The position numbers and the translations under genes were made by a program. Under the pieces are notes generated by a model. It was not told the DNA's origin. It searched no databases and worked only from the letters and a program-made list of their open reading frames with translations. From assembly GCA_034189005.1 (NCBI GenBank), contig JAXHVR010000009.1:11413-75412 (forward strand): 64,000 nt of DNA. Direction: 5' to 3'. Positions 4,662-47,882 of this stretch are shown here, piece after piece. Origin of the DNA: Cyanobacteriota bacterium (lineage in GTDB: Bacteria; Cyanobacteriota; Cyanobacteriia; Cyanobacteriales; Microcoleaceae). Each line of letters opens with the position of its first letter. Position 1 is the first letter of the stretch.

Positions 4662-7600
4662 ATGAATGCAAAAAATAGTAATAGTAAAAACCATAAAGCT
4701 TTTTTGATTTCTGGGATGCATCGTTCCGGTACTTCTTTGACAGCTTCTTTGCTGCAAAAGGCGGGGATTAATATTGGTAAAAAATTAGTGGGGCCGGAAT
4801 ATGGAAATATTAAGGGTCATTTTGAGAACATAGATTTTGTCAAATATCATCAGGAAATATTGCGATCGCAAAATATTGATGACTTGGGCAGCAACCTTTT
4901 AGACGAACAAGAAATTGTAATTGGAGAAAAGGAGAAAAAAAGAGGAAGACAGTTAATTAAAAAGCATCAAAAAGGTAAGGATTTGTGGGGGTGGAAAGAC
5001 CCTAGAACTACATTATTTTTGGATTTGTGGTTGGAATTACTGCCGTACGCAAACTTTATTTTTATCTTCCGATCGCCCTGGGAAGTAGTTGACTCTCTCT
5101 ATCGGCGATCGACGGATGAAAACTTGGTAGAATCTCCAGAGGTTGCCGTGAAAATGTGGCAGCTTTATAACCGCAGAATATTGAAATTTAATCAAAACTT
5201 ACCAGACCGATGCCTGATAGCTAACGTGGATAAGGTGGGTAAAAATCCTGAAGGTTTTATTAAAGCAATTAACGATAAATTTAATCTAAATTTAACAGCA
5301 CCATCGGAGGAAAACTTTGATGAATCTTTATTAATTAAAAATATAGAAAATACTCATCGCCCCTGGTTGATAGAGAAAAACTATCCCCAAACTTTAGAAA
5401 TTTATCGGCAGCTAAAAGCAGCGGCGATCGAAATCGAACCAGCGGACGATGGCGAAGAAAAAATTAGCGCCCCAACTTCAGAAAATTGGGCGTTTAGAGA
5501 TTGGTTCGACGTCCGCAGTTTAGAAAAACAAGCTCAGATTCTAGAATTAGAAGCTTTGCAATTACATAAAGATGTCGAAGACTGGCATAAATTATTTGAA
5601 GAAGCGCAAGAAAGAGCGATCGCCCTAGAAGCGGCATTAGGAGAAACGGAACTAAAACTAGACGGCAAAGAACTAAAACTACAAGAATCTTCAGAGAAAT
5701 TAGAAGGACTAGAAGCGGAACTCGGAGAAGCCCAAACACAGTTAGACGGTACTAAAGTTAAATTATTAGAATCTCAAACCAAAGTAGCAACTTTAGAAAG
5801 AAAACTCGGACAAACCCAAGCACAATTAGACGGTACCCAGGTCAAACTTATAGACTCCCAGAAAAAAGTCCTGGGATTAGAAACAGATTTAGGGCAAACT
5901 CAAGCCAGACTGGAAGGTTCTGAAACTCGCTTTCAAGAATCTTTAACTAAACTTGTGGGACTAGAAACTAAACTCGGTCAAACCGAGGTGCAATTAGAAG
6001 GGACTAAAACCAAATTACATCAGTCTCAGAAGCTTTTGTTAGGACTGGAAACAGAATTAGGACACGCTCAAATTCAGTTGAATACTACTCAATTGAAATT
6101 AGAAGAGTCCCAGAAGAAAATACAGGGTTTAGAGAAAGAATTGGGAGACACTCAGTTGCGACTGGATGGTTCTCAAGCACAAATAAAAGAGTCCCAGGCA
6201 AAAATAGGAGAGTTAGAAGGGGAACTGGGAGAAACCCAACAGCGACTGGATGGTTCTCAAGCACAAATAAAAGAGTCCCAGGCAAAAATAGGAGAATTAG
6301 AAGGGGAACTGGGGCAAACCCAACAGCGACTGGATGGTTCTCAAGGACAAATAAAAGAGTCCCAGGCAAAAATAGGAGAGTTAGAAGGGGAACTGGGAGA
6401 AACTCAGTTGCGACTGGATGGCAGTCAAAACCAATTAAAACAATCTCAATCAAAAATAGGGGAGTTAGAAGGGGAACTGGGGCAAACCCAACAGCGACTC
6501 AACGGCACTCAAGTCAAATTAGATGAGTCCCAGGGGAAAATACAGGTATTAGAAACGGAACTGGGGCAGACTCAACAACAACTACAGGGGACTCAGGCAC
6601 AACTGGGGCAAACTCAAGCAGAATTAACTCAAACCCAGACTGCCCTCGGTCAAACTCAAAGCGCCCTAAGCCAAACCCAGACATTATTAGGAGAAACTCA
6701 GACGGTTTTGGTGCAAACCGAGGTGACTCTGGGGCAAACTCAGGCAGAATTAATCGCCCAACGGCAGGAAACTCAAGAACTGCGGGAAGAAATTTTAGCC
6801 ATGAGATCTTCCAAGTTCTGGAAACTGCGGGAGAAATGGTTTAATTTCAAACGGAGACTGCGGGGGTTGCGATATTGCATCCGCAAGGCTTCGCCAACGC
6901 GCTTTGTCTTCTCCCTCGACACTCCCACCAGTTGGGAAATTTCCAGCCCTCAATTAGAAGTAGTTGGCTGGTGTTTTGCGCAGGGCGCAAACTTATTTAA
7001 CAACAATAACGGAAATCTTGAAGTGGATGCCATCCGCGCCCGCATCGCAGACCGAACCTTTGACGGCAGCTACGGCATCGAACGCCTCGACGTCGCCCAA
7101 AAACACGACCATACCCCCGCCGCCCAAAATTCGGGCTTCCAAATTCAACTGGAACTACCCCCAGGACGGCATCAACTGGTACTAGAAGCAAAAGATAGGA
7201 AGGATAAATGGCATAGCATCGCCTCCTATCCCATCATCGTTTCCACGGTTCAAGCAAACTTCGATGCCCCGGCAACCTTCGAACAACGGGAAGGAATGGT
7301 GTTATTTGCCGGCTGGTGTTGCCATCCAGAGAAGAAAATTTCCAAATTAACCCTGCGTTGCGGCGATGTTTCTATCGACTGCGCCTACGGTTTGCGTCGC
7401 AAAGATGTCGCCGAAGCTTTCCCACAATGGGTTGGCAGTTTGGATAGCGGTTTCGAGGCAACTGTAGAGTTACCGCCGGGAGAATGGCCGCTAATTTTAG
7501 AGGCAACTTTAGATACCGGGGAAATTGTCGGTTTTCAATGCCAGAATAGTTTGAAAGTCCGCCGCTACGGCGTTTTAGACCGCGCTAAAGACAAGCGCCT

Positions 7601-10600
7601 GGAGTTGTTGCAGCTTGGGGCTGCGGTTCGCAAGCGCGCCGCTGAGAGGAAACAGCGTTTGGGGCGGATCGTACCTTTGCCCTGGGAGTTGCCCCGCGTC
7701 GCCCGCCGGGTTATCGAGATGTATCGGGAACAAAAAAGTTTTGGGGAGTTGTCGCCGCCGGCTGGTTTTCTGATGCCGGTGTCGGTGGAACCTTACGAAG
7801 CTTGGTTGGAGGTGAATAAATGGGGCGATCGCGCTTTCGATCGTCTGACATCTCGCTTGGAAGGGGCGGCGGCGGATAGTTTGCCGAAAATTTCCGTGGT
7901 GATGCCGGTTTATAACCCGCCAGTGGAGTTTTTACGGGAGGCGATCGCCAGCGTAACCAACCAAGTTTACCAAAACTGGGAACTCTGCATCGCCGACGAC
8001 TGCAGTACCGACCCGGAAATTCGCCAAATTTTAAGCGAGTTGGCAGCGGACGATCCAGCCGACGACGACCGTAGAACAGGCGTCTCGCCTGTTCCAGCAG
8101 AAAGCGACGACCGTAGAACAGGCGTCTCGCCTGTTCCAGCAGACCCTCGCATCAAAATAAAATTTCGCGAAGAAAACGGCAACATCAGCGCCGCGACCAA
8201 CACCGCCGCCTCTCTGGCGACGGGAGACTTTATTCTATTCCTAGACAACGACGACGAACTAACTCCCGACGCCCTAGCAGAAGTCGCCCTCTATCTGGCA
8301 GAACATCCAGAAACCGACTTCCTCTATTCCGACGACGACAAGATCGATACGGAAGGCGATCGCTTCGACCCTCAATTCAAACCCGAATGGTCTCCAGAGT
8401 TGCTTCTATCCTTCATGTACATGGGGCATCTCTGCGCGGTTCGCCGAGAAATCTTTGAAAAAGTCGGAGGTTTGCGAGTCGGTTACGAAGGTTCCCAAGA
8501 CTACGACTTCGCCCTCCGGGCAACGGAAGTTTCCCGCAAAGTTGCCCATTTACCGTTAATCTTGTACCACTGGCGAACCGCCCCCGGTTCCACTGCCGTT
8601 TCCGGCGGCGAAAAACCTGCCAGTTTTGCAGCGGGGCGGCAGGCGGTACAAGATGCCTTGGATCGTCGCGGGGTTTCGGGGAAAGTAGATCGACCGGACT
8701 GGGCGATCGCTGAGAATTTGGGAATTTTTGCCCCGGAGTTTCCCCAGACCGGCCCTTCGGTGACGATTATTATTCCTACTAAAAATCAACTCCATTTTAT
8801 CAAGGGTTGTCTGGAGTCTCTGGAGAAGACTTCTTATCAGAATTATCGGGTTTTTGTCATCGATAATGAAAGCGACGATCCGAAAACTTTGGAGTATTTG
8901 GAAGGTGTTGGAGGATCCCCCCCTGCCCCCCTTGAAAAGGGGGGAGAAAGAAAGGTTGGAAAAGCGGGAGAAGTACGGGTTTTAAAAATACCTAATGAGG
9001 GGGGGAAATTTAATTTTGCCGCCATTAATAACCGCGCTGTCGAACAAGCAGAAACAGATTATATTCTATTTCTTAATAACGACACGGAAATTATTACCGA
9101 AAATTGGTTGAGTCAGATGGTTGGTTACGCCCAACTCCCCGGAGTCGGTGCCGTTGGGGCGAAGCTGATTTATCCAGACGGACGGATCCAACACGCGGGA
9201 ATAATTCACGGTTTGCATCACGGTCTGGCGGGTCATGCTTTTAAGTTAATGCCTTCGGAAAATCGCGGTTATTTGTCTCAAGCTGCGGTAGGGAGAAATT
9301 ATTCGGCGGTGACTGCTGCTTGTATGTTAACTCATAGGGAATTGTTTTTAGAAATGGGCGGTTTTGACGAGGAGAAATTCGCCGTTGCTTATAACGATGC
9401 GGACTACGGTTATCGACTTTTAGAAAAAGGTTATCGTTCGGTTTATTGCCCCGAAGCGGAGTTAATTCATCGGGAAGGAACCAGTCGCGGTTTTGTGGAT
9501 AATCCCCGGGAGGAAGCAATTTTTCGCCGCCGCTATGCCGAGATGGTAGATAAGTTTTATAGTCCCCATTTCTCTCTGGCAAATGAGTTATTCGAGGTTC
9601 AACCTCGGCGCTATTTTCTATCCCCCCCAACTCCCCTTGGAAAAGAGGAAGACCGTAGAACAGGCATCTTGCCTGTTGATGATGCGGAACAAGAAACCCG
9701 GTTTTTTGGAAAAACCGGGTTTCTGGGGGGGAGGAAAATTACATTATTAATGTGCAGTAATTCTTTAGATTTTACTGGGGCGCCTTTACATCAATACGAA
9801 ATTGCAGTTCAACTAGCTTCTGAAGGAATAGTTAAACCCATAATATTTTCTCCCACGGAAGGTCCGTTGCGTAAGGTTTACGAGGAGAAAAATATTGAAG
9901 TAATAGTGTTAGATAATCCCCTGGAACATATTTATCAACGGGATGATTACGATGCCGCATTGGAAAGCTTTGCTAAAGAAATAGAAGGGCTAAATGCTGA
10001 CGTAATTTATGCTAATACTTTAGAGAACTTTTTCCTAATAGATATTGCCCAGATGCTAAATATTCCTAGCGTTTGGAACGTTCACGAAAGCGAACCTTGG
10101 CAAACTTATTTTAATCGCTTCGGACCGGAAATAGCGACTCGCGCTTTGGAATGTTTCCGCTATCCTTATCGGATTATTTTTGTGGCGGATGCGACGCGGG
10201 ATAAATATTTACCTCTCAACAGTCACCATAATTTTACGGCAATTCATAACGGTTTGGATTTGGAATTGTTGAAAAGTTCGGCTAAGAAATGGTCTCCAGA
10301 GGAGGCGAGGGCGGCTTTGGGAGTTAATTCCGATGAGATTGTTTTGTTAATTTTGGGGACGGTTTGCGAAAGAAAAGGTCAAGAAGATTTGGTTAAAGCA
10401 ATACCTTATATTGGGGCGGAATGGGTAGGTAAAATTAAGTGTTTTATTGTAGGCGATCGCCCCAGTTTATATAGCAGTCAATTATCTGCTTTGGTGGCGG
10501 GTTTACCAGAGGAGTTAAAAGGGCGCATAGAAATAGTTCCAGAAACTCCCGATACTGCCAAATATTATCAAGCAGCAGATATCTTCGTTTGTACTTCGCG

Positions 10601-10895
10601 AATAGAAAGTTATCCCCGAGTAATCTTAGAGGCAATGGCTTATAATTTGCCAATAGTTACGACTCCAGTTTTCGGCATTGTGGAACAAGTGAAACCGGGA
10701 ATTAACGGTTTGTTTTATACCCCAAACCAACCCGAAGAATTAGCCTCGCAGTTGATGATTTTATTGGAGGATGAAGAGTTAAGGTTGCGACTGGGAGATA
10801 ATGCGAAATATGTGTTGGATGCGTTGAATACTTTTGAAGAAATGACCGCAGCTTACAGTCAGATATTTTGCGAAGCGTATTTGAGTCGTTCGTAA
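4662..10895 (+). CDS. 2077-aa multidomain glycan assembly protein: sulfotransferase, ~430-aa coiled coil, 2x beta-module, GT2, GT2, GT4
   Basis: PAPS-type motifs GMHRSGTS and FRSPWEVVDSLYRR. 28-aa/7-aa repeats span nt ~5520-6810. GT2 signatures are VVMPVYNP..DDCSTD..LDNDDE and IIIPTKN..IDNESDD..LNNDTE. The C-terminal GT4-like part reads FVCTSRIESYPRVILEAMAYNLPIV. Confidence 0.85.
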   Translation: MNAKNSNSKNHKAFLISGMHRSGTSLTASLLQKAGINIGKKLVGPEYGNIKGHFENIDFVKYHQEILRSQNIDDLGSNLLDEQEIVIGEKEKKRGRQLIKKHQKGKDLWGWKDPRTTLFLDLWLELLPYANFIFIFRSPWEVVDSLYRRSTDENLVESPEVAVKMWQLYNRRILKFNQNLPDRCLIANVDKVGKNPEGFIKAINDKFNLNLTAPSEENFDESLLIKNIENTHRPWLIEKNYPQTLEIYRQLKAAAIEIEPADDGEEKISAPTSENWAFRDWFDVRSLEKQAQILELEALQLHKDVEDWHKLFEEAQERAIALEAALGETELKLDGKELKLQESSEKLEGLEAELGEAQTQLDGTKVKLLESQTKVATLERKLGQTQAQLDGTQVKLIDSQKKVLGLETDLGQTQARLEGSETRFQESLTKLVGLETKLGQTEVQLEGTKTKLHQSQKLLLGLETELGHAQIQLNTTQLKLEESQKKIQGLEKELGDTQLRLDGSQAQIKESQAKIGELEGELGETQQRLDGSQAQIKESQAKIGELEGELGQTQQRLDGSQGQIKESQAKIGELEGELGETQLRLDGSQNQLKQSQSKIGELEGELGQTQQRLNGTQVKLDESQGKIQVLETELGQTQQQLQGTQAQLGQTQAELTQTQTALGQTQSALSQTQTLLGETQTVLVQTEVTLGQTQAELIAQRQETQELREEILAMRSSKFWKLREKWFNFKRRLRGLRYCIRKASPTRFVFSLDTPTSWEISSPQLEVVGWCFAQGANLFNNNNGNLEVDAIRARIADRTFDGSYGIERLDVAQKHDHTPAAQNSGFQIQLELPPGRHQLVLEAKDRKDKWHSIASYPIIVSTVQANFDAPATFEQREGMVLFAGWCCHPEKKISKLTLRCGDVSIDCAYGLRRKDVAEAFPQWVGSLDSGFEATVELPPGEWPLILEATLDTGEIVGFQCQNSLKVRRYGVLDRAKDKRLELLQLGAAVRKRAAERKQRLGRIVPLPWELPRVARRVIEMYREQKSFGELSPPAGFLMPVSVEPYEAWLEVNKWGDRAFDRLTSRLEGAAADSLPKISVVMPVYNPPVEFLREAIASVTNQVYQNWELCIADDCSTDPEIRQILSELAADDPADDDRRTGVSPVPAESDDRRTGVSPVPADPRIKIKFREENGNISAATNTAASLATGDFILFLDNDDELTPDALAEVALYLAEHPETDFLYSDDDKIDTEGDRFDPQFKPEWSPELLLSFMYMGHLCAVRREIFEKVGGLRVGYEGSQDYDFALRATEVSRKVAHLPLILYHWRTAPGSTAVSGGEKPASFAAGRQAVQDALDRRGVSGKVDRPDWAIAENLGIFAPEFPQTGPSVTIIIPTKNQLHFIKGCLESLEKTSYQNYRVFVIDNESDDPKTLEYLEGVGGSPPAPLEKGGERKVGKAGEVRVLKIPNEGGKFNFAAINNRAVEQAETDYILFLNNDTEIITENWLSQMVGYAQLPGVGAVGAKLIYPDGRIQHAGIIHGLHHGLAGHAFKLMPSENRGYLSQAAVGRNYSAVTAACMLTHRELFLEMGGFDEEKFAVAYNDADYGYRLLEKGYRSVYCPEAELIHREGTSRGFVDNPREEAIFRRRYAEMVDKFYSPHFSLANELFEVQPRRYFLSPPTPLGKEEDRRTGILPVDDAEQETRFFGKTGFLGGRKITLLMCSNSLDFTGAPLHQYEIAVQLASEGIVKPIIFSPTEGPLRKVYEEKNIEVIVLDNPLEHIYQRDDYDAALESFAKEIEGLNADVIYANTLENFFLIDIAQMLNIPSVWNVHESEPWQTYFNRFGPEIATRALECFRYPYRIIFVADATRDKYLPLNSHHNFTAIHNGLDLELLKSSAKKWSPEEARAALGVNSDEIVLLILGTVCERKGQEDLVKAIPYIGAEWVGKIKCFIVGDRPSLYSSQLSALVAGLPEELKGRIEIVPETPDTAKYYQAADIFVCTSRIESYPRVILEAMAYNLPIVTTPVFGIVEQVKPGINGLFYTPNQPEELASQLMILLEDEELRLRLGDNAKYVLDALNTFEEMTAAYSQIFCEAYLSRS
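6158..6577 (+). repeat. five near-identical 84-bp (28-aa) tandem units inside the coiled-coil region
   Basis: GCGACTGGATGG recurs at 6158, 6242, 6326, 6410 and 6494, exactly 84 nt apart. The unit encodes LEGELGETQQRLDGSQAQIKESQAKIGE. Confidence 0.95.
6563..6752 (+). repeat. nine 21-bp (heptad) tandem units, consensus LGQTQxx
   Basis: CAAAC(T/C)CA(A/G)-type units every 21 nt; peptide LGQTQAE LTQTQTA LGQTQSA LSQTQTL LGETQTV. Confidence 0.9.
8064..8142 (+). repeat. two in-frame tandem copies (42-nt period) of the GTAGAACAGGCGTCTCGCCTGTT palindromic element inside a GT2 domain
   Basis: GACGACCGTAGAACAGGCGTCTCGCCTGTTCCAGCAG occurs at 8064 and 8106 and encodes DDRRTGVSPVPAES twice. Confidence 0.95.
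9654..9723 (+). repeat. in-frame GTAGAACAGGCATCTTGCCTGTT element plus AGAAACCCGG/CCGGGTTTCT hairpin in the GT2-GT4 linker
   Basis: Encodes RRTGILPV...ETRFFGKTGFL. Both elements also occur intergenically in the window. Confidence 0.95.
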
Positions 10896-10912
10896 TATTA
10901 AAGCAAGCAAAT

Positions 10913-11176
10913 ATGAAGAACAAATTTACTTCGAGAAACTCTCAGACTGACTGGGAACGCCTAGACGCGATGACTGATGAAGATATAGATTTTTCCGATT
11001 GTCCACCCCTGACGGAGGAGTTTTTTGAAAATGCTACTCTAAGAATACCAGCAGTTCGAGCTCGTAACTTAATTGAGCTAGATGCTGACGTGATGGCGTG
11101 GTTTCGAGAGCAAGATGCAGAGTATAGAACGACGATTAATTCAATATTGCGACGTTATGTAGAGAGTAGGAAATAG
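10913..11176 (+). CDS. BrnA/DUF4415-like antitoxin-family small protein (orphan)
   Basis: TDWERLDAMTDEDIDFSDCPPLTEEFF ... LDADVMAWFREQ..YRTTINSILRRYV resembles the BrnA family. Start trimmed to the ATG at 10913, downstream of the previous stop. No BrnT-like partner seen. Confidence 0.55.
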   Translation: MKNKFTSRNSQTDWERLDAMTDEDIDFSDCPPLTEEFFENATLRIPAVRARNLIELDADVMAWFREQDAEYRTTINSILRRYVESRK

Positions 11177-11450
11177 CTTGGAAACACCAGAGATCTCAGA
11201 AACCGGGTTTCTCAATTAACTTCTCGCTTGAGAGGCAAAAGTTATGCGAGAAACCCGGTTTCTTGTGAGTTAAAAAACATCTTTTGCAACGTCCATCTAA
11301 CCATAGGTGGGGGAACTGCATTGCCGTAAAGAATATAGCGATAACGATCGCTCTCTTCCTCTTAGGTCGCGCTTCGCTTCTTCTTTGTATTCTACCATAC
11401 AGAAAAATTACCAAATGTTTGATAATTGTCTATGGTAAAAGGAGAGAAAA

Positions 11451-13574
11451 ATGATTTTAGTTATTAGCCGTCTAACCATCAAATCTAAACTGACAATTAT
11501 GCTTTTAGGAGTCAGTTTGGGTTCCATATTAGTCATCGGATACTTAAGCTGGAATCGCGCGCGAAATACCCTCCAAGAAACCATATTCAATCAATTAACC
11601 AGCGTCCGTTCTTCCAAAGCTTATCAAATCGAATCATACTTCCAAAACCTGCGAAATCATGTAGAAACTCTCTCGGAAAACCGGATGATTGTCGCCGCAA
11701 TGGTAGAATTTAATAAAGAATTCAAACAGCTAAATAGAGCATATATTCCCGTAGATTGGGTAACGAAAATAGAGGGATATTATGAAAACGAATTTTTCCC
11801 CAGACTCTCTAAAAATATCCCAGGTCAACCCAATATCGAAAACTACCGGCCTTTAGGTCAAGCAGCGAGATACCTTCAATATTATTACGTCGCCAATAAC
11901 CCCAATCCTTTAGGAGAAAAAGACAATTTAGTAAAAGCAGAAGACGGTAGCGAATACAGCAATTATCATGCTAAATACCACCAACTTTTCAGAAATTTAA
12001 TTAAAAAATTTGGCTACTACGATTTATTTTTAATTAATTTTGAAACAGGAGATATCGTCTATTCCGTTTATAAAGAAACCGATTATGCGACTAATTTACA
12101 ACGAGGCCCCTACCGTCAAAGCAATTTGGCAAAAGTAATCCAAAAAGTACGAGAAAATCCCGATCGCGGTTCGATTCAATTAGTCGATTTTCAACCCTAC
12201 CGCCCTTCTTATGCAGCCCCCGCTGCCTTCTTCGCCGCCCCAATTTATAACGGACCTTATATCGTCGGTATTTTAGCAGTACAACTTCCAGTGGATGAAA
12301 TTAATAATGTCTTGACTGGAAACCAAAATTGGGAGGGAGATGGTTTGGGAGAATCTGGGGAAACTTATTTAGTAGGTTCTGACTTTTTAATGCGGTCTAT
12401 TTCTCGATTTTTGATTGAAGATATGGAGGAATATACCAAAACCTTGAGGGCGATCGCTACCCCAGAAAGCACTGTCGAATTAATCCAACAATTACAAACA
12501 TCTATTTTATTACAATTAGTAGATACCGAAGCCGCCAGAGAAGCCCTCCAAGGCATTAAAGGCACGAAAATAGTTGACGATTATCGCGGCATACCGGTTC
12601 TTAGTTCCTATTCTCCTCTTAATATTGAAGGAGTAGATTGGGCGATTTTATCAGAAATGGACGTTGCGGAAGCTTACCGACCGATGTACGGCTTGCAAAC
12701 ATACCTTTTAAGAGCAACTGTAATTCTTATTTTACTAATTACCTTTCTCGCCTGGCTTCTTGCTTATAAATTTGTCGAACCCATTAATACAATTATGGAA
12801 AAGGTCCGTAAAGTAGGCGACGGGGAACTCGATGTGGAAGTGAAATTAAACTCTAAAGATGAGTTCGGAGAACTGGCGCACACTTTTAACGAAATGGTTC
12901 GCGGCATCCGCCAACAAACTAAGTTAATTGAGGAAAAAAATCGCGAAAATGAGGAATTGTTATTAAATATTTTGCCAACAGCAGTGGCAGAAAGAATGAA
13001 AAAAGGCGAAGATAGCATCGCCGATCGCATCGAAGAAGTTACCGTATTATTTGCAAGTTTGGGAGGTTTGAGCAAATTTGGTGCTTCTAGGGAAGTCCGG
13101 GAAATTGCTAATATGCTTAACGAGTTAATTCATTCTTTCGATGTCCTGGCAGAAAAACATTATGTGGAAAAATTGAAAACTATTAGCGAACGTTACATTG
13201 GCGTTTGTGGGGTCGCAACTCCCCGTTTGGACCATGCCAAACAATCCTTGGATTTGGCTTTGGAAATGTTACATACTCTGGAACGTTTTAATAGCAAATA
13301 CGGAACCGATCTGACTCTGCGCATCGGCATCGATAGCGGGGAAGTGATGGCTGGAATTATTGGTATTAAAAAGTTCATGTACGACCTCTGGGGCGAGACC
13401 GTAAATATTGCCAGTTACCTCAGCCTTGAAGCTAAATCGAATACGATTTTAGTCAGCGAAGAAATTTATAATAGTTTGCACGATTTATATGTTTTTCAAC
13501 CGGGGGAGGCGATGGAGTTTGAAGATAAAGGTTTGTTGAAAACTTGGATGTTAATCGATCGTTGTAAATTGTAA
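11451..13574 (+). CDS. membrane sensor protein: TM, large periplasmic (Cache-like) domain, TM, HAMP, class III cyclase-homology domain
   Basis: AAGGAG RBS. HAMP reads EPINTIMEKVRKVGDGELDV..EFGELAHTFNEMV. The CHD reads VTVLFASLGGLS..KLKTISERYIGV..RIGIDSGEVMAGIIG..YDLWGETVNIASYL, and its catalytic positions look non-canonical. Confidence 0.85.
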   Translation: MILVISRLTIKSKLTIMLLGVSLGSILVIGYLSWNRARNTLQETIFNQLTSVRSSKAYQIESYFQNLRNHVETLSENRMIVAAMVEFNKEFKQLNRAYIPVDWVTKIEGYYENEFFPRLSKNIPGQPNIENYRPLGQAARYLQYYYVANNPNPLGEKDNLVKAEDGSEYSNYHAKYHQLFRNLIKKFGYYDLFLINFETGDIVYSVYKETDYATNLQRGPYRQSNLAKVIQKVRENPDRGSIQLVDFQPYRPSYAAPAAFFAAPIYNGPYIVGILAVQLPVDEINNVLTGNQNWEGDGLGESGETYLVGSDFLMRSISRFLIEDMEEYTKTLRAIATPESTVELIQQLQTSILLQLVDTEAAREALQGIKGTKIVDDYRGIPVLSSYSPLNIEGVDWAILSEMDVAEAYRPMYGLQTYLLRATVILILLITFLAWLLAYKFVEPINTIMEKVRKVGDGELDVEVKLNSKDEFGELAHTFNEMVRGIRQQTKLIEEKNRENEELLLNILPTAVAERMKKGEDSIADRIEEVTVLFASLGGLSKFGASREVREIANMLNELIHSFDVLAEKHYVEKLKTISERYIGVCGVATPRLDHAKQSLDLALEMLHTLERFNSKYGTDLTLRIGIDSGEVMAGIIGIKKFMYDLWGETVNIASYLSLEAKSNTILVSEEIYNSLHDLYVFQPGEAMEFEDKGLLKTWMLIDRCKL

Positions 13575-13580
13575 ATTGTT

Positions 13581-15017
13581 ATGGAAGAATCTATCTTAAT
13601 TTGGGGAGTGGCTTTAATTTTAGGCTTTCCTCTGGTCAGCCTTGTATTAGGAGAAGCGATCGATCGCTTAGAACGCGATCGCCATCCTTTAGCTAAATTC
13701 TTGGGCAATACTCGCACTTTAATTTTGCCACCTTTGGCAGTGTTGTTAGTAATGCAATTAATCCTCGATGTTACTGACGGTCTTTTTTTGCGAATAGTCG
13801 AGACGCTTTACTGGATCGCAGCAACGATAACCTGCTTATCTCTAGTAAATGGAGTCCTCACCACCAAAAGCAAAACCGCTGCTTGGCAATTACGACTACC
13901 AAATCTCTTTTTTCAAGTTGCGCGCGCCCTCGTAGTTTTAGCGATCGCTTCCTATCTTCTCGGAGGCATCTGGTCGATCGATCTCAGCAGAGTTGCCAGC
14001 GCCTTGGGAGTTGGTTCCTTAGTAATTGCCCTCGCCTTACAAGATACTCTCAGCAACCTAGTTTCTGGATTCTTGCTGCTATTTTCTAAACCTTTCGTCG
14101 TCGGCGACTGGATTAAATACGGAGATTACGAAGGTCGGGTTATCGACCTAAACTGGCGGGCGGTGACTATAGAAACTATTTTCAAAGTTCATATCGTCAT
14201 CCCCAACGGAGTTTTAGGGCAAGAAACCATCGTTAACTATTCCATGGAACCGGCCCGGTGGGACTCGATTCAAATAGGTTTCTCTTACGACCATCCCACC
14301 AACTACGTTATGGACGTCTTAAAAAGTTTGACAAAAGACATTAAAGATATCGCCACCGATCCCCCACCCTTTGCTTGCGTAGATGCCTACGACGATTTCG
14401 CCATCACCTATTCTTTATGGTTTTGGGTTCTACCAGAGAAGGCGTGGTTCGTTCAAAACGAACTCAAAGGCAGGATTTTCTATGCTGCGAAACGTCACGA
14501 CCTCAATATTCCCTTTCCCATCAGGACTTTGCATCACGTTAGGACTCCCAGCAGCGTCCCGGATGTTGGTATTGAGATTGCCGAATTTCTCCACTCGCTT
14601 CCGTATTTCACGTCTTTGGAAGAGTGGACGATCGCTTCTCTTGCTAGAACTGCGGACATCAAATATTATGGAAAAGGCGAGAGAATTGTTAAAGAAGGAG
14701 AATTCGATTTAGGTCTTTATATTATTGAAGAAGGGACGGTCAAGCTTTCAGTTACCGACGATCGCGATCGCCGTTCAGAAGTCGTCAGTCTGGGGCCGGG
14801 AGATTTCTTTGGAGAAATGGCACTCCTCCCAGGGGAAGCAAGTTTGGTATCCGTGACGGTTATTGAGGATTTGAAAGCTATTTTTATAGATAGCGTTTCC
14901 GCAATTAATTCGATCCAGGGAAATTCTAAGTTTATCGCCCAGATGAATAAATTCGTCGAACAGCGTACCGAAACCGTGACTTTGGTTAAAGGAAGCAAAG
15001 ATTTGTTAAATAATTAA
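13581..15017 (+). CDS. MscS-family mechanosensitive channel with C-terminal cyclic-nucleotide-binding domain (bCNG-type)
   Basis: MscS core LALQDTLSNLVSGFLLLFSKPFVVGDWI...VIPNG. The C-terminal CAP_ED-like part reads GERIVKEGE..LYIIEEGTV..GDFFGEMALL. Starts 7 nt after the cyclase-homology gene. Confidence 0.85.
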   Translation: MEESILIWGVALILGFPLVSLVLGEAIDRLERDRHPLAKFLGNTRTLILPPLAVLLVMQLILDVTDGLFLRIVETLYWIAATITCLSLVNGVLTTKSKTAAWQLRLPNLFFQVARALVVLAIASYLLGGIWSIDLSRVASALGVGSLVIALALQDTLSNLVSGFLLLFSKPFVVGDWIKYGDYEGRVIDLNWRAVTIETIFKVHIVIPNGVLGQETIVNYSMEPARWDSIQIGFSYDHPTNYVMDVLKSLTKDIKDIATDPPPFACVDAYDDFAITYSLWFWVLPEKAWFVQNELKGRIFYAAKRHDLNIPFPIRTLHHVRTPSSVPDVGIEIAEFLHSLPYFTSLEEWTIASLARTADIKYYGKGERIVKEGEFDLGLYIIEEGTVKLSVTDDRDRRSEVVSLGPGDFFGEMALLPGEASLVSVTVIEDLKAIFIDSVSAINSIQGNSKFIAQMNKFVEQRTETVTLVKGSKDLLNN

Positions 15018-15054: not shown

Positions 15055-15141
15055 GATTATGAAAAATTAGGGGGCCAGAAACCCGGTTTCTCAAAGAAAC
15101 CGGGTTTCTAAAATATCGCGAACGATCTACGGCTTGCTATA
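15055..15141. mobile_element. TATAGCAA-family element, 5'-truncated copy
   Basis: GATTATGAAAAATTAGGGGGCCAGAAACCCGGTTTCTCAAAGAAACCGGGTTTCT...CGGCTTGCTATA. Confidence 0.8.
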
Positions 15142-15219: not shown

Positions 15220-16293
15220 ATGCGTAAATGGAATTATGGTCTTTTAGCGATTTTAGTTTTTGGGTTGCTTGCCTGTAACGGGGATGGAAGGCGATCGCCC
15301 CCATCGACCGGCAAAGCAGAAAATAACCCATATTTGATTTTGGCAGAACAGGAATTATCCCCGCCGACATTACCAAAAAATCGTTCCTCCCCCACTCCCC
15401 CACCGAAAACAAAAACTGCTGTTAATACTGGAATTCGCTTACCAAAAGTCAATCCTTTAGAAGTAGAAGGAGATTTAACCATAGCAGGAAGTTATACCGT
15501 TTTCCCCCTAACCAAGAGAATCTTCCATCGCTTTGTAGAAGAAGGTTATGCGGGAATTCTTAAACTCGACAGTATTAGTTCCGACGAAGGTTTTAAACTG
15601 TTTTGTCAAGACGGAAAAATTGACATTGCTAATGCCAGTCGTCCGATTAATTTTGAAGAAATAGATGCTTGTAATGCTAAGGGGCGATCGCCTTTACAAT
15701 TTCCGGTCGGCAGCGATGCGATCGTCGTGGTGGTTCATCCAGAAAACAATTTTCTTAACAATGTCAGTTTCTACGAATTAGACCTAATTTTTACTGCTAG
15801 AAACTGGTCTGACGTCAATCCTTCTTGGCCTAACCAACCAATTCAACGTTTTGTAGGCCATCGGGATTCGGAAATTGTAGAATTTTTTGCAGCAATAGTT
15901 TTTAATAGCAATCTACAGCCTATTTTCAACGCGCCCAACACGAAATTTACCGAAATAGATATAGAGTTAATCCGGAGAGTAAGTAGCAATAAATACGCAG
16001 TTGGATTTTTAAGTTACGCTAATTATCGGCAAAATGCTGAAAGTTTAAAAATGCTTTCAATTGAAGGAGTAAAAGCGGATTTTAACGCTATTGAAAACGA
16101 ACAATATTTTTTAGTTCGTCCGCTGTTTATTTATACCGACGCTAAGATGATGAAAAATAATCCCCAAGTAGCCGATTTTATTAACTTTTATCTGACTAAT
16201 GCCAGCGAAGAAGCGTGGCAAATTGGTTATTTTCCAGCAAGTAAGAGGGAATTGGAGGAAGCGAAATTAAAGTTTTTAGAAGAGACGAGGTAA
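15220..16293 (+). CDS. PstS-family (PBP-like 2) substrate-binding lipoprotein
   Basis: Lipobox LLAC after a signal peptide, GGAGGA RBS, and GSYTVFPL...ANASRPI..EE pattern as in phosphate-binding proteins. Confidence 0.65.
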   Translation: MRKWNYGLLAILVFGLLACNGDGRRSPPSTGKAENNPYLILAEQELSPPTLPKNRSSPTPPPKTKTAVNTGIRLPKVNPLEVEGDLTIAGSYTVFPLTKRIFHRFVEEGYAGILKLDSISSDEGFKLFCQDGKIDIANASRPINFEEIDACNAKGRSPLQFPVGSDAIVVVVHPENNFLNNVSFYELDLIFTARNWSDVNPSWPNQPIQRFVGHRDSEIVEFFAAIVFNSNLQPIFNAPNTKFTEIDIELIRRVSSNKYAVGFLSYANYRQNAESLKMLSIEGVKADFNAIENEQYFLVRPLFIYTDAKMMKNNPQVADFINFYLTNASEEAWQIGYFPASKRELEEAKLKFLEETR

Positions 16294-24576: not shown

Positions 24577-24682
24577 TATAGCAATCCGCGCAGGGATTAT
24601 GAAAAATTAGGGGGCCAGAAACCCGGTTTCTTTGAGAAACCGGGTTTCTAAAATATCGAAGGGCGATCTACGGCTTGCTATA
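24577..24682. mobile_element. ~105-bp MITE-like element, TATAGCAA...TTGCTATA termini, central AGAAACCCGGTTTCT / AGAAACCGGGTTTCT hairpin
   Basis: Full-length copy. The same element is seen at 47779..47882 (inverted) and 59656..59954 (interrupted). Confidence 0.85.
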
Positions 24683-33872: not shown

Positions 33873-36800
33873 ATGGCTAGTTCGACAATTTCTAGGTTAC
33901 AGGTAGAGGAATTTCTGACAGAAAGGCATCCTTTCGATCGCCTTTCTCAAGAAACCCTAAAAAATTCAGTAGTAGGAAAGTGCCAGCTTTTGGGGTATAA
34001 GACGGGACAACCCCTATTCGAGCGAGACAAGATGCCCACGCAGATAGCAATAATCTATGAGGGGCAGGCCCGAGTATTGGGTTTAGACCAGCGATCGCAA
34101 CGAAACACGAGCTTGCAAGTAGTAGGGCCTGGAACCGTATTGGGTTGGGTGGGTGCCATCAGAGGTATTCCCTGCGAAACGGCGATCGCCTCGACGGATT
34201 TAATCGCCATAACCCTACCAGTAGAAGATTTCCTGGCATTAGTAGCAGCCGAGCCCGCCTTTGGGGAAGTATTCACAGACCATGCCTCCCCCATAGAAGT
34301 ATTCGAACTGCTAAGTGCAGAATTGGCAAGAAGGGCGGATATTTCGGTAAATACCAAAGAATACGCCAAAAAGATTTGGGAAGATACCGTTGTAGTCAAC
34401 CTGCAAGGGGGCAATAGAAAGGAAGAAGACCTGGCTAAGGCTTTAGACTCAGAAAAAGTTTGGCTCGTAAGCAGCGGGGTAGTAGGAGATTATCCCACGG
34501 GGAGCAGGTTAGCTCTCAATGGGTCGAATAAATCAATAAAAATAGAAGGCCCCAGGGGAGCGAGGTTAATAGGATTTCCCGAAGAATCTCAGGCCGCCGC
34601 AGCCCCACAAGAAGAAATAGCCGAAGAAACTACCAACGGTAATGGCAACGGAAAATTAGCAACGATAGATATCTCGAAGATTCCCGAAGCGCCAGCACGT
34701 CCGCCGGGCCCGACAGTAAAAGAAGAAGCACTCCAAAACAGTAAATACCCAGTAATAAGAGCTAAGGGAGATCTAGAGGGGCCTTTGGCTTGCTTCCAAA
34801 TGCTTGCCAAATATCTCAGGCTTAAGTTTCGCAAAGACGTAATTCGTCGAGTCCTGACAAATCAGTTGAGTAGCGCGGGCAGGATCTCGATGCAAGCTTG
34901 CGGGGCGATCGCTCAAATGATGGGATTGCAAGGCCAGCTAGTGCAAGTGCCGGCAATGTCGGTAAATCGACTAAGGGCCCCTGCCCTGATTCAATGGCAA
35001 GATGGCTTCGCGGTAATTTACAGCATTACCGAACAGGAAATAGTCTTAGCCAGTCCGGCACGGGGACTAGAGAGGCTAAAACCGGGGATGTTTGCGGAAA
35101 TTTGGGGCGAAATGGGTCAAATCCTGTTGCTGACGGCCCCAAGCAGCGAAGAAAAGGAGCAATTTAGCTTTTGGTGGTTCGTACCAGCCTTGATGGAACA
35201 TCGCACCGTCTTTATTGAGGTGTTGATTTCTTCCTTCTTCGTGCAGGTGTTTGGTCTGGTAAACCCGCTAATGACCATGATCATCATCGATAAAGTCATG
35301 GGCAACCGCAACATTGAAGCCCTAGATATGTTGGCCCTGTTGATGTTAATCGTGGCCCTATTCGAGGCCCTCCTCAGCGGTCTGCGTACCTTTTTATTCG
35401 TCGATACTACCAACAGGCTAGATGTAAAACTAAGCTCGGAGGTAATCGACCACTTACTGCGCCTGCCCCTGAACTATTTCGACAATCGGCGGGTGGGAGA
35501 TTTGACCGGCCGAATTGCGGAACTGGCTAATATCAGAAACTTCCTCACGGGTACGGCCTTGACGGTGGTATTAGATGCCATCTTCTCGGTGATTTATATC
35601 GCGGTAATGTTGGCTCTTAACCCATTAATGACGGCGGTGGCTTTAGCTGGGGTGCCGTTTTTTGCGGTGATTATTTTGGTCAACTCTCCCATCATCCAAC
35701 GACTGCTGCGGAAAAAAGCCGAACGTTATGCCGACTCTCAATCTTATTTGGTAGAAATTCTTAACGGCATCCAGACAGTAAAAGCTCAAAATTTGGAGTT
35801 GCGTTCTCGCTGGGAATGGTCTAGCCGTTACGCTCGTTTTATGACGGCGAGTTTTAATACAGTTCTGACCCAAACAACTGCCAGTTCTATTAGTAGCTTT
35901 TTGAATAAATTATCCGGTTTGGCCCTGCTGTGGGTGGGTGCTTATTTGGTCATAGACGGAAGCTTATCTGTAGGTGGATTGATTGCTTTTAGGATTATTG
36001 CCGGTAACGTGACGGGTTCTTTGCTTCGCTTCGTTAGCGTCTGGCAGAGCTTCCAGGAAGTAGGTATGTCGGTGGAACGCCTGCGGGACGTTTTGGATAC
36101 TCCAGGGGAGGTGGATGAGGAAGACCGAAATAATATCGATATGCCAGAGATTAAAGGGCAGGTGAAATTTGAGGAGCTTTCCTTCCGCTTTGGCGAAAGC
36201 GGACCTCTTCAACTGGCAAATGTAAACTTGGACTTCCCTGAAAATTCTTTTGTGGGAATTGTGGGTTTGAGCGGTTCGGGTAAGAGTACGTTGATGAAGT
36301 TATTGCAGCGTCTTTATAAACCGCTTTCCGGTCGGATTTTTCTGGACGGGTATGATATTCATAAGGTGGAATTGTATTCGTTGCGCCGACAAATAGGGGT
36401 GGTGCTGCAAGATACTTTGCTCTTTAACGGAACGGTGCAAGATAATATTGCTTTGTCTAATCCCGATGCTAGTACCGATGAGATTGTAAGGGCTGCGAAA
36501 ATAGCGGTGGCTCACGATTTTGTGATGAATTTGTCGGCTGGTTATAACACGGTGGTGGGGGAGAGAGGATCGAGTTTGTCTGGAGGACAAAGACAGCGAA
36601 TTGCGATCGCTCGTACGGTTTTACAAAACCCAAATATCCTGATTTTAGACGAGGCAACTAGCGCTTTGGATTACAGTTCCGAACGTCAGGTTTGCGATAA
36701 TTTGGCGGAGGCTTTTAAGGGTAAAACGGTGTTCTTTATTACCCACCGTTTGACTACGGTCAGAGGGGCAGATTCTATCATAATGATGGACCAAGGTTCT

Positions 36801-36887
36801 GTGGTGGAACAGGGAACTCACGAAGAATTAATGGCTCTAAAAGGTCGTTACTATTGCCTGTACCAACAACAAGAAGCGGAACAATAA
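33873..36887 (+). CDS. type I secretion ABC transporter: cNMP-binding domain, C39-like (apparently non-catalytic) domain, TMD, NBD
   Basis: N-terminal CAP_ED-like region. The C39-like region reads YPVIRAKGDLEGPLACFQML...LIQWQDGFAVIY...VLASPARG. The NBD has GLSGSGKST, LSGGQRQR and ILILDEATSALD. Confidence 0.9.
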   Translation: MASSTISRLQVEEFLTERHPFDRLSQETLKNSVVGKCQLLGYKTGQPLFERDKMPTQIAIIYEGQARVLGLDQRSQRNTSLQVVGPGTVLGWVGAIRGIPCETAIASTDLIAITLPVEDFLALVAAEPAFGEVFTDHASPIEVFELLSAELARRADISVNTKEYAKKIWEDTVVVNLQGGNRKEEDLAKALDSEKVWLVSSGVVGDYPTGSRLALNGSNKSIKIEGPRGARLIGFPEESQAAAAPQEEIAEETTNGNGNGKLATIDISKIPEAPARPPGPTVKEEALQNSKYPVIRAKGDLEGPLACFQMLAKYLRLKFRKDVIRRVLTNQLSSAGRISMQACGAIAQMMGLQGQLVQVPAMSVNRLRAPALIQWQDGFAVIYSITEQEIVLASPARGLERLKPGMFAEIWGEMGQILLLTAPSSEEKEQFSFWWFVPALMEHRTVFIEVLISSFFVQVFGLVNPLMTMIIIDKVMGNRNIEALDMLALLMLIVALFEALLSGLRTFLFVDTTNRLDVKLSSEVIDHLLRLPLNYFDNRRVGDLTGRIAELANIRNFLTGTALTVVLDAIFSVIYIAVMLALNPLMTAVALAGVPFFAVIILVNSPIIQRLLRKKAERYADSQSYLVEILNGIQTVKAQNLELRSRWEWSSRYARFMTASFNTVLTQTTASSISSFLNKLSGLALLWVGAYLVIDGSLSVGGLIAFRIIAGNVTGSLLRFVSVWQSFQEVGMSVERLRDVLDTPGEVDEEDRNNIDMPEIKGQVKFEELSFRFGESGPLQLANVNLDFPENSFVGIVGLSGSGKSTLMKLLQRLYKPLSGRIFLDGYDIHKVELYSLRRQIGVVLQDTLLFNGTVQDNIALSNPDASTDEIVRAAKIAVAHDFVMNLSAGYNTVVGERGSSLSGGQRQRIAIARTVLQNPNILILDEATSALDYSSERQVCDNLAEAFKGKTVFFITHRLTTVRGADSIIMMDQGSVVEQGTHEELMALKGRYYCLYQQQEAEQ

Positions 36888-47778: not shown

Positions 47779-47882
47779 TATAGCAAGCCTAAATCATTCG
47801 TGATATTTTAGAAACCCGGTTTCTTGAAGAAACCGGGTTTCTTGCCCCCAAATTTTTCAGAATCCCTGCACAGATTGCTATA
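47779..47882. mobile_element. TATAGCAA-family element, inverted orientation
   Basis: TATAGCAAGCC...GAAACCCGGTTTCTTGAAGAAACCGGGTTTC...CCCTGCACAGATTGCTATA. Confidence 0.85.

Follow-up and report, generated by a model that had tools for sequence, protein, structure and literature searches.

Positions 11451-15017 of a 64,000-nucleotide (nt) stretch of DNA from a Cyanobacteriota bacterium of the family Microcoleaceae (assembly GCA_034189005.1, contig JAXHVR010000009.1, forward-strand positions 11,413 to 75,412; the whole stretch is called the window throughout) hold two tandem genes, for a membrane receptor and an ion channel, that recur as a pair across cyanobacteria. This recurrence suggests a module in which sensor and channel are hard-wired to each other, perhaps with no use of cyclic AMP (cAMP). 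The receptor ends in an adenylate cyclase homology domain (CHD) in which both metal-binding Asp residues and the transition-state Arg are replaced, and the channel is an MscS-like protein whose C-terminal cyclic nucleotide-binding (CNB)-like domain has Ser where the phosphate-clamping Arg of such domains is expected. Judged from sequence, functional coupling of the receptor to the channel is very likely, and it is likely, by only slightly less, that the window receptor is not a conventional cyclase. The two combined, a pseudo-cyclase receptor that is coupled to the channel and itself makes no cAMP, is the reading we favor, with a confidence somewhat above even.

Three of the Six Canonical Catalytic Residues of the CHD Are Replaced

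The Pfam profile PF00211 (Guanylate_cyc) matches residues 525-702 of the receptor with an E value of 5e-42 and 179 of its 183 positions covered. The closest relatives in the PDB (E 1e-52 to 1e-33) are AC9, AC8, AC5 and the chains 4p2f, 1yk9, 5o5k and 7yz9, named there only as "Adenylate cyclase," which we take to be Rv1625c and its M. intracellulare homologue, of class IIIa. The six canonical positions were set by phmmer alignment to the solved AC9 and AC8 chains, which provide C1 and C2 references, and in the window they are S536, K576, E580, D645, N652 and Y656, i.e. SKEDNY for the canonical DKDDNR, with all codons checked. The first metal-binding Asp is thus Ser (LFASLGG, compared with FADIVGFT in C1 and the same "FASI" in C2), the second is Glu (TISERY, compared with TLGDCY), and the transition-state Arg is Tyr (VNIASYL, compared with VNIASRM). 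K576, placed four residues ahead of the second metal position, is the adenine-specifying Lys (EKLKT, compared with EKIKT in C2), the adenine-specifying Asp is D645 (YDLWG; reference YDIWG), and the transition-state Asn is kept as N652 in VNIASYL. Two further nucleotide contacts are also present, R624, the γ-phosphate Arg, and K693.

A competent class III cyclase carries two metal-binding Asp residues, where the window has S536 and E580, and an Asn-Arg transition-state pair, of which the window has N652 and, for the Arg, Y656. With three residues replaced, a homodimer of this CHD would therefore carry two equally defective sites. The preliminary description of this locus had read Ser at the first Asp, Glu at the second and Tyr at the Arg, with Lys, Asp and Asn kept, and alignment to Guanylate_cyc and to AC8 and AC9 bears this out; its retained adenine Lys is now placed precisely, as the second Lys of KLK. 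It had also called the domain C2-like, which is right for the pattern (FAS at metal position 1, with Lys, Asp and Asn kept) but goes too far otherwise: a C2 subunit lacks the Asp pair and keeps Lys, Asp, Asn and Arg, whereas the Arg is Tyr here, and overall the domain is slightly closer to C1 (95 bits in the alignment to AC9, compared with 84 bits for C2). The domain matches are strong and not chance, and SKEDNY is found also in an independent relative, the metagenomic contig L081, which carries the same pair of genes with the same lengths at 91.5% nucleotide identity.

Most Catalytic Columns Vary in the Receptor Family, Yet the Window Gene Is under Purifying Selection

The best 120 database homologues of the receptor, 52-63% identical over the full length and mostly cyanobacterial where an organism is named, served as the family sample; a CHD is recorded in all 120, and HAMP and/or dCache domains in most. 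A canonical DKDDNR set is found in just one of them, both metal Asp residues are kept in 19 and the transition-state Arg in 7. When the 186 CHD columns are ranked by entropy (1 being the most conserved), the six catalytic columns fall, in the order S536 to Y656, at ranks 145, 102, 33, 108, 116 and 165. Five of the six (ranks 102-165) therefore vary more than the median CHD column, and the sole conserved one is the second metal position, occupied by Asp or Glu. R624, the Arg of RIGIHSG, is kept in 57 of the 120, and K693, the Lys in the C-terminal GKG, in 41. As the structural glycines and aromatic residues of the CHD are at the same time nearly invariant, the family bears the signature of a fold that is kept for a non-catalytic purpose.

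The replacements do not look like decay. Comparison of the window with L081 by the method of Nei and Gojobori gave a ratio of nonsynonymous to synonymous substitution (ω) of 0.14 for the receptor, made up of 0.09 in the periplasmic part, 0.04 in the segment from the second transmembrane (TM) helix through HAMP to the linker and 0.28 in the CHD, and of 0.19 for the channel; both genes are under purifying selection and are not pseudogenes. Non-canonical residue sets are moreover retained within sub-clades across genera, for example HNTSYS at 62-94% CHD identity, and since each such sub-clade holds a set of its own, new constraints rather than drift are indicated. Among the channel-linked CHDs with complete patterns, 8 of 70 are canonical and 36 of 70 lack the first metal Asp.

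The Phosphate-clamping Arg of the Channel Cassette Is Replaced by Ser

The channel gene encodes an MscS channel with a C-terminal domain of the cyclic nucleotide monophosphate (cNMP)-binding type, as had been proposed; this is established by Pfam matches (PF00924, MS_channel_2nd, E 3.7e-20; PF21082, MS_channel_3rd, E 2e-8; PF00027, cNMP_binding, residues 361-438, E 1e-16) and by alignments to PKG and PKA. The LALQDTLSNLVSG motif after the pore helix is invariant in the channel alignment. In the alignments to PKG and PKA the cassette FFGEMALLPGEASLVSV keeps Gly411-Glu412, while the phosphate-clamping Arg is replaced by S421 and the Ser/Thr that should follow it by L422. The canonical cassette expected of a bacterial channel gated by cyclic nucleotides (bCNG channel), Gly-Glu followed by Arg-Ser/Thr, is accordingly present in its first half only.

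This Ser is a property of the whole group. It is invariant in a 22-sequence channel alignment, and among the 120 closest channel homologues the position is Ser in 117, Asn in 3 and Arg in none. The channel profile retrieved 80 genomic loci (32-50% identity), of which 79 have a readable cassette, 78 of them with the Ser. The exception, in locus L079 from a Bdellovibrionales metagenome-assembled genome (MAG), reads GEERSANV, and a search seeded with it retrieved a sister group, 85 of whose 120 members carry FGEMALLTGEPR[ST]A; the few named members of this Arg-type group come from Bdellovibrionota, Oligoflexia, Planctomycetota and delta-proteobacteria. The C-helix Arg, R462, was considered as compensation for the lost cassette Arg and rejected, because it is equally invariant in Ser-type and Arg-type channels. 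That the exchange can matter is known from the regulatory subunit of kinetoplastid PKA (PKA-R), where a polar residue in place of the cassette Arg accompanies a lost response to cNMP and restoring the Arg is enough to bring back a response to cyclic nucleotides (PMC10959531).

The Gene Pair Is Conserved and Tracks the Ser-type Channels

In the 80 loci a CHD gene on the channel strand ends within 300 nt upstream of the channel gene in 62, 301-1000 nt upstream in 6 and further upstream in 1; in the remainder it is elsewhere in the flank (3 loci) or absent (6 loci), or the upstream sequence is too short (2 loci). Expressed by cassette type, 69 of 77 assessable Ser-type loci have a same-strand upstream CHD gene and the five Arg-type loci have none (Fisher p = 5e-5; phylogeny is not corrected for, and the Arg-type sample is small). 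Overlaps of the receptor and channel genes, commonly of 4, 8 or 29 nt (range 4-29 nt), are frequent, and when the lookup is made from the receptor side, a channel gene adjoins all three receptor homologues. The pair extends beyond cyanobacteria to MAGs labelled Verrucomicrobia and Chloroflexota and to some that bear the label alpha-proteobacteria. An extra CHD within the conserved module is seen only in L022, where the match is weak.

A neighbor-joining tree of the channels falls into two groups that correspond to the type of the partner CHD. Partners in the first group keep D-K-D-D and mostly the Asn, with the Arg confined to a sub-clade of Microcoleus, Scytonema and Tolypothrix that is still canonical DKDDNR; those in the second group, which includes the window, are thoroughly degenerate. 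The pairing thus persists through complete turnover of the catalytic residues. Ser-type channels stand next to canonical cyclases as well, and the ancestral logic therefore probably ran from cyclase to channel, the ancestral pair probably being a true cyclase and a cNMP-responsive channel.

By its length the 1177-residue homologue P0053 was a candidate cyclase-channel fusion, which was rejected: MscS and CNB domains are both missing from it, and a separate gene downstream of it encodes its channel. A different arrangement was seen with the Arg-type channel P0246 of a Bdellovibrionota MAG, which is followed directly by a convergent CHASE2-cyclase gene (L087, 6603-8684, minus strand), a neighborhood that differs in kind from the Ser-type operon. 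In the 868-residue receptor P0049 (L085, 6001-8607) a globin domain follows the CHD, with channel and PstS-like genes still downstream; this domain is probably shared by the HNTSYS-type receptors of about 860 residues in Nostoc, Microcoleus and Argonema. Receptors of about 860 residues are located in L007, L009, L012, L016, L019, L021, L022, L024 and L025.

The Receptor Has a dCache-type Sensor

Pfam, hydropathy, AlphaFold2 (AF2) modeling and alignments together give the order TM-dCache-TM-HAMP-transducer helix-CHD for the receptor, with a single TM helix at the N terminus and one ahead of HAMP in the hydropathy scan. The Pfam match to dCache_1 is below threshold (32.8, gathering score 45); the AF2 model of the 381-residue periplasmic part (pLDDT 94.2, pTM 0.90) has a dCache fold with an extra helical insertion. 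Nearly all of the best 50 Foldseek matches to this model are dCache ligand-binding domains (best E 2e-8), among them those of the chemoreceptors and sensor kinases PctA/B/C, Mlp24/37, CtaA and DctB. On the strength of the model we are confident that the predicted sensor is a double Cache (tandem PAS-like) fold held between two TM helices. It is also the most conserved part of the receptor, with the lowest mean column entropy in the 120 homologues. Between HAMP and the CHD, the segment ENEELLLNILPTAVAERMKKGE aligns with the LxNILPxxVA segment ahead of C2 in AC8 and AC9, and is presumably the cyclase-transducer element of class IIIa/b cyclases.

A PstS-like Gene Is a Recurrent Third Member

Downstream of the channel lies a gene for a periplasmic binding protein that matches PF12849 with an E value of 1.8e-23, scores 168.5 with TIGR02136, below the cut-off of 206.6, and has 4jwo as its closest PDB relative. 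In 17 of the 80 loci, in addition to the window, the channel gene is followed directly by a PstS-like gene on its strand, and the same holds for L083 and L085, the loci of P0002, the closest outgroup receptor, and of P0049 with its fused globin. Every locus that has it belongs to the degenerate-CHD clade, and the binding-protein gene recurs as the third member of the module. In the window protein the anion-binding loops are GSYTV and SEI, compared with the canonical GSSTV and SGT, and in the module-linked homologues (L001-L027, L063) they are either canonical GSSTV/SGT or variant, GSYTV/SEI or GSQVV/GGS. The loop sequences suggest that the ligand may have changed within this family, and because the loops are non-canonical and variable we make no claim of phosphate binding. 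Control by the phosphate regulon was considered and rejected: a scan for a tandem Pho-box-like site found none upstream of the module and none upstream of the PstS-like gene, and the window-wide counts were those expected by chance.

Layout and Surroundings of the Locus

The two open reading frames (ORFs) lie where they had been described (Table 1); the spacer, given before as 7 nt, has 6. Both ORFs are in one frame, with only the stop codon and two codons between them (13572-13583), and read-through at the receptor stop would give a receptor-channel fusion protein. This shared frame is probably a coincidence, since it is lost in L081, where the spacer is 130 nt. Scans for sigma-70 promoters and intrinsic terminators gave no more sites than in shuffled sequence.

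Table 1. Features of the receptor-channel locus and its immediate flanks, in window coordinates
Feature	Position	Strand	Basis
Receptor gene, putative pseudo-cyclase, 707 aa	11451..13574	+	ORF; Pfam; 100% identical database entry P0001; ω vs L081
TM1, about aa 10-34	11478..11552	+	Kyte-Doolittle hydropathy scan
Periplasmic sensor domain, aa 36-416, predicted dCache fold	11556..12698	+	AF2; Foldseek; column entropy
TM2, within aa 412-445	12684..12785	+	Hydropathy scan
HAMP domain, aa 436-488	12756..12914	+	PF00672, E 1.6e-12
Cyclase-transducer-element-like helix ENEELLLNILPTAVAERMKKGE, aa 499-520	12945..13010	+	AC8/AC9 alignment
CHD, aa 525-702, class IIIa-like, catalytically degenerate	13023..13556	+	PF00211, E 5e-42; PDB relatives
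S536 codon AGT, first metal-binding Asp position	13056..13058	+	
K576 codon, adenine-specifying Lys kept	13176..13178	+	
E580 codon GAA, second metal-binding Asp position	13188..13190	+	
D645 codon, adenine-specifying Asp kept	13383..13385	+	
N652 codon, transition-state Asn kept	13404..13406	+	
Y656 codon TAC, transition-state Arg position	13416..13418	+	
Spacer of 6 nt, ATTGTT, from receptor TAA (13572-13574) to channel ATG (13581)	13575..13580	+	
MscS-like channel with C-terminal CNB-like domain, 478 aa, Ser-type, bCNG-like	13581..15017	+	ORF; Pfam; homologues
Channel TM region including pore-lining helix, aa 1-153	13581..14039	+	Hydropathy; LALQDTLSNLVSG motif thereafter
MscS β-domain and α-β domain, aa 155-310	14043..14510	+	PF00924; PF21082
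CNB-like domain, aa 338-466	14592..14978	+	PF00027; PKG, PKA and SthK alignments; local HMM
Phosphate-binding cassette FFGEMALLPGEASLVSVTV	14805..14861	+	S421 codon 14841-14843
PstS-family periplasmic binding protein, 357 aa, lipobox LLAC	15220..16293	+	PF12849; 4jwo; synteny
Palindromic repeat pair GAAACCSGGTTTC, upstream of module	11199..11262	no strand	
Palindromic repeat pair GAAACCSGGTTTC, between channel and PstS-like gene	15078..15108	no strand	

The receptor-channel pair is flanked on each side by one pair of a 13-nt palindrome, GAAACCSGGTTTC, of which the window contains 11 copies against 0 expected, for the most part in close pairs and in intergenic DNA; besides the two sites in Table 1 it is found at 24618-24648, 27493, 39611, 47811-47841 and 59697. 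Four copies lie between receptor and channel in L081 (9870-10000) and widen the spacer there from 6 to 130 nt. The palindrome looks like a small mobile or recombinogenic repeat.

The preliminary description had placed the pair in an island of three cyclic nucleotide-related modules, the third being a type I secretion system exporter. The exporter does exist (33873..36887, 18.9 kb downstream; cNMP_binding, Peptidase_C39 and ABC domains), but the island is not supported as a unit. About 19 kb and unrelated genes, of glycosyltransferase, methyltransferase and RTX types, separate the exporter from the pair; its CNB-like domain is N-terminal, with a cassette, LGWVGAIRGIPCETAIA, that lacks both residues required for cNMP binding, the Glu and the Arg; and no such exporter was found as a recurrent neighbor in the flanks of about 6 kb of the 80 related loci. 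An RTX-repeat protein (22264-24318) and an HlyD-like protein (37060-39237) are encoded near it. Upstream of the pair, a 2077-residue ORF (4662-10895) combines long coiled-coil repeats (LEGELG.TQ...) with two GT2 domains and one GT4 domain and carries DRRTGVSPVP as a repeated insertion; at its 3' end it overlaps with a small ORF that resembles a BrnA antitoxin (10868-11176).

A Possible Mechanism and Its Alternatives

The module we envisage would consist of three co-oriented genes, for a dimeric membrane receptor, an MscS-like channel and a PstS-family periplasmic binding lipoprotein. A periplasmic signal would arrive at the receptor by one of two routes, binding of a small ligand in the dCache pocket or docking of the ligand-loaded binding protein, and would be relayed by HAMP and the transducer helix so as to reposition a CHD dimer that has retained its fold and lost its catalysis, i.e. 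a pseudo-cyclase. The state of this dimer would in turn be read by the CNB-like domain of the channel, and gating would be altered. As the CHDs of the window group cannot plausibly make cAMP, the last step would need either direct contact between CHD and CNB-like domain or a ligand other than canonically bound cAMP, while the canonical sub-clade may still signal by local cAMP, sensed by a deliberately weak, Arg-less site. We infer joint action of receptor and channel, no cAMP from the window CHD, and coupling without a diffusible messenger made in situ. The most specific version, a cAMP-free module in which the dead CHD dimer gates the channel directly through the clamp-less CNB-like domain with the PstS-like protein as co-receptor, we regard as rather unlikely when taken as a whole.

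Several observations weigh against this picture. The window receptor is among the less degenerate members of its family, keeping K576, D645, N652, R624 and K693 and having Glu at the second Asp, and from its sequence it may bind nucleotides or even retain some weak or atypical catalysis. In the channel, Gly-Glu and the invariant C-helix Arg persist in the Ser-type cassette, low-affinity binding of cNMP by this cassette is likewise possible, and the Ser is found also in channels that are paired with canonical DKDDNR cyclases and may therefore be compatible with the sensing of locally made cAMP. Coupling by direct CHD-CNB contact is something we purely infer and consider doubtful, at about one chance in three; the MscS of Escherichia coli is a heptamer, and a receptor dimer makes an awkward match to such a channel. 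The spacer is not of constant length, being 6 nt in the window and 130 nt in its nearest relative, L081. A search of RNA runs for the locus gave no match, the locus being carried by marine and sediment metagenomes alone.

The preliminary description had left a choice between a cyclase that feeds the neighboring channel and a pseudo-cyclase acting as a regulatory or heterodimerizing subunit. The regulatory option has gained, with catalytic columns that are among the most variable of the CHD in 120 homologues and a gene and channel pairing that are conserved. Four other explanations were weighed, all of them improbable in our estimation.

The best placed is that the CNB-like domain has switched its ligand, for instance to a nucleoside, a different nucleotide or an intrinsic peptide, which the pseudo-cyclase would bind, deliver or sequester without contacting the channel. 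The CNB-homology domains of KCNH channels, which use an intrinsic ligand, are a precedent, and the window CHD, which retains residues that contact base and phosphate, may still be able to bind ATP. In kinetoplastid PKA-R, moreover, cassettes without the Arg are documented to bind nucleosides and not cAMP (PMC10959531). Against this, the Ala-to-Glu change that is the signature of the kinetoplastid proteins is absent and the cassette keeps GEMA, the nucleotide-contacting residues are not conserved across the receptor family, and no ligand can be named from sequence.

Marginally less probable is an unusual but active cyclase, with the CHD homodimer making cAMP or another cyclic nucleotide that the channel senses locally through a low-affinity, Arg-less cassette, which would insulate it from the global cAMP pool. 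The retention of K576, D645, N652, R624 and K693, the ability of Glu to ligate metal, the purifying selection on the CHD (ω 0.28) and the Ser-type channels next to canonical cyclases in one sub-clade all fit such an enzyme. What speaks against it is the loss of both the first metal Asp and the transition-state Arg. To our knowledge, the first metal Asp is kept in characterized active class III cyclases (Rv1625c, mutagenesis of the mammalian enzymes). Close relatives differ at these very positions (SKEDNQ, TKEDAE and SREDAQ, the last with the Lys read at K574), and catalytic columns more variable than the domain median are the opposite of how an active site behaves. With the cassette Arg absent from the channel as well, a cyclase feeding cAMP to its neighbor is unlikely here.

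Lower again we rank a C2-like subunit, in which a CHD partner encoded elsewhere supplies the metal Asp pair and a composite site forms as in mammalian C1-C2. The FAS motif is identical to that of mammalian C2, with Lys, Asp and Asn kept as in C2, and complementation between differently crippled CHD monomers is established for class IIIa cyclases by the mixing of Rv1625c mutants. The composite site would nevertheless still lack the transition-state Arg and the reciprocal site its metal ligands, the overall similarity is not closer to C2, and a receptor with a dCache/HAMP stalk of its own is built to homodimerize. No second CHD was found within the 64-kb window and none in the conserved module apart from the weak extra one in L022, so that a C1-like partner is missing from both, and the family patterns do not split into complementary C1-like and C2-like classes.

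That receptor and channel are independent neighbors, the channel gated by tension or by a ligand drawn from the general pool of the cytoplasm and the receptor signaling elsewhere, e.g. by binding nucleotides or proteins, is just as improbable: the variable spacer, the uninformative promoter and terminator scans and the failure of overexpressed bCNG channels to protect E. coli from hypo-osmotic shock (PMC13591265) would fit it, but same-strand adjacency at 69 of 77 Ser-type loci from cyanobacteria, Verrucomicrobia and Chloroflexota, the frequent start/stop overlaps, the absence of adjacency from the Arg-type relatives and a pairing that has outlived complete turnover of the catalytic residues stand against it.

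Significance and Relation to Known Systems

Cyanobacterial tallies of adenylate cyclases and cAMP receptors rest on domain counts, such as the 22 cyclases of Arthrospira (PMC2853384), and the present dCache-HAMP-CHD family lacks catalytic residues, while the channels dedicated to its degenerate receptors, although named cyclic nucleotide-gated, lack the phosphate-binding Arg. If the cAMP-free, direct-gating version is true, many annotated cyanobacterial "adenylate cyclases" and "cAMP-regulated channels" would be neither, and the module would be a widespread one in which what remains of a cyclase and its effector forms a prokaryotic ligand-gated channel complex and the second messenger is dispensed with. 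The range from canonical DKDDNR to fully degenerate within one gene pair offers a natural series from enzyme and effector to pseudo-enzyme complex. The partner gene, the Arg/Ser split that tracks it and the PstS-like third gene also provide testable handles on the stimuli of bCNG channels.

The family of bCNG channels has been described before (2010; Malcolm et al. 2012); a 2026 review that sums this work up gives their physiological role and structure as unknown and mentions no partner gene or cyclase partner (PMC13591265). The window channel resembles them in having an MscS pore, β- and α-β domains and then a CNB domain, and in a taxonomic home that is mostly cyanobacterial; with the whole cyanobacterial group it departs from the canonical cassette in having Ser for the Arg, which the sister group keeps. 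A literature search on cyclases with MscS channels and on pseudo-cyclases found only one passing mention of the gene neighborhood, and no account was found of the degeneracy of the cyclase partner, of the Arg-to-Ser exchange in the channel, of how the two correlate or of the third, PstS-like gene, the original bCNG papers lying outside the search. The passing mention concerns an adenylate cyclase/cNMP-MscS neighborhood in the genomic island module Syn_GI122 of marine Synechococcus and Cyanobium (Dore et al. 2020, PMC7522525), and corresponds to the DKDDK[GA] Cyanobium sub-clade of our analysis. In the passage concerned the pair is treated as cAMP synthesis with a cAMP-regulated channel, and degeneracy of either partner goes unmentioned there.

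With class IIIa adenylate cyclases the receptor shares its sequence matches, the transducer helix before the CHD and the Lys, Asp and Asn; it differs in the replacement of both metal Asp residues, the second now Glu, and of the transition-state Arg, and its input is dCache plus HAMP rather than a six-TM bundle. The mammalian C2 domain has the same FAS at metal position 1 and the same Lys, Asp and Asn, but keeps the Arg that is Tyr here, works with a C1 partner of which no counterpart lies nearby, and is slightly less similar overall than C1. Kinetoplastid PKA-R, which binds purine nucleosides, parallels the channel in having a polar residue for the cassette Arg with a hydrophobic residue next to it, but in an entirely different protein context and with an Ala-to-Glu change that is absent here (PMC10959531).

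The third gene brings in a further comparison. Receptors assisted by a binding protein, such as LuxP-LuxQ and, in phosphate chemoreception, PstS-CtpL, offer a lead to how the PstS-like protein might act. The present module differs from them in its output, a pseudo-cyclase and a channel instead of a kinase or chemoreceptor, and in the altered anion loops of its binding protein; what it has in common with them is a periplasmic binding protein that is encoded together with a membrane receptor of the tandem-PAS/dCache type.

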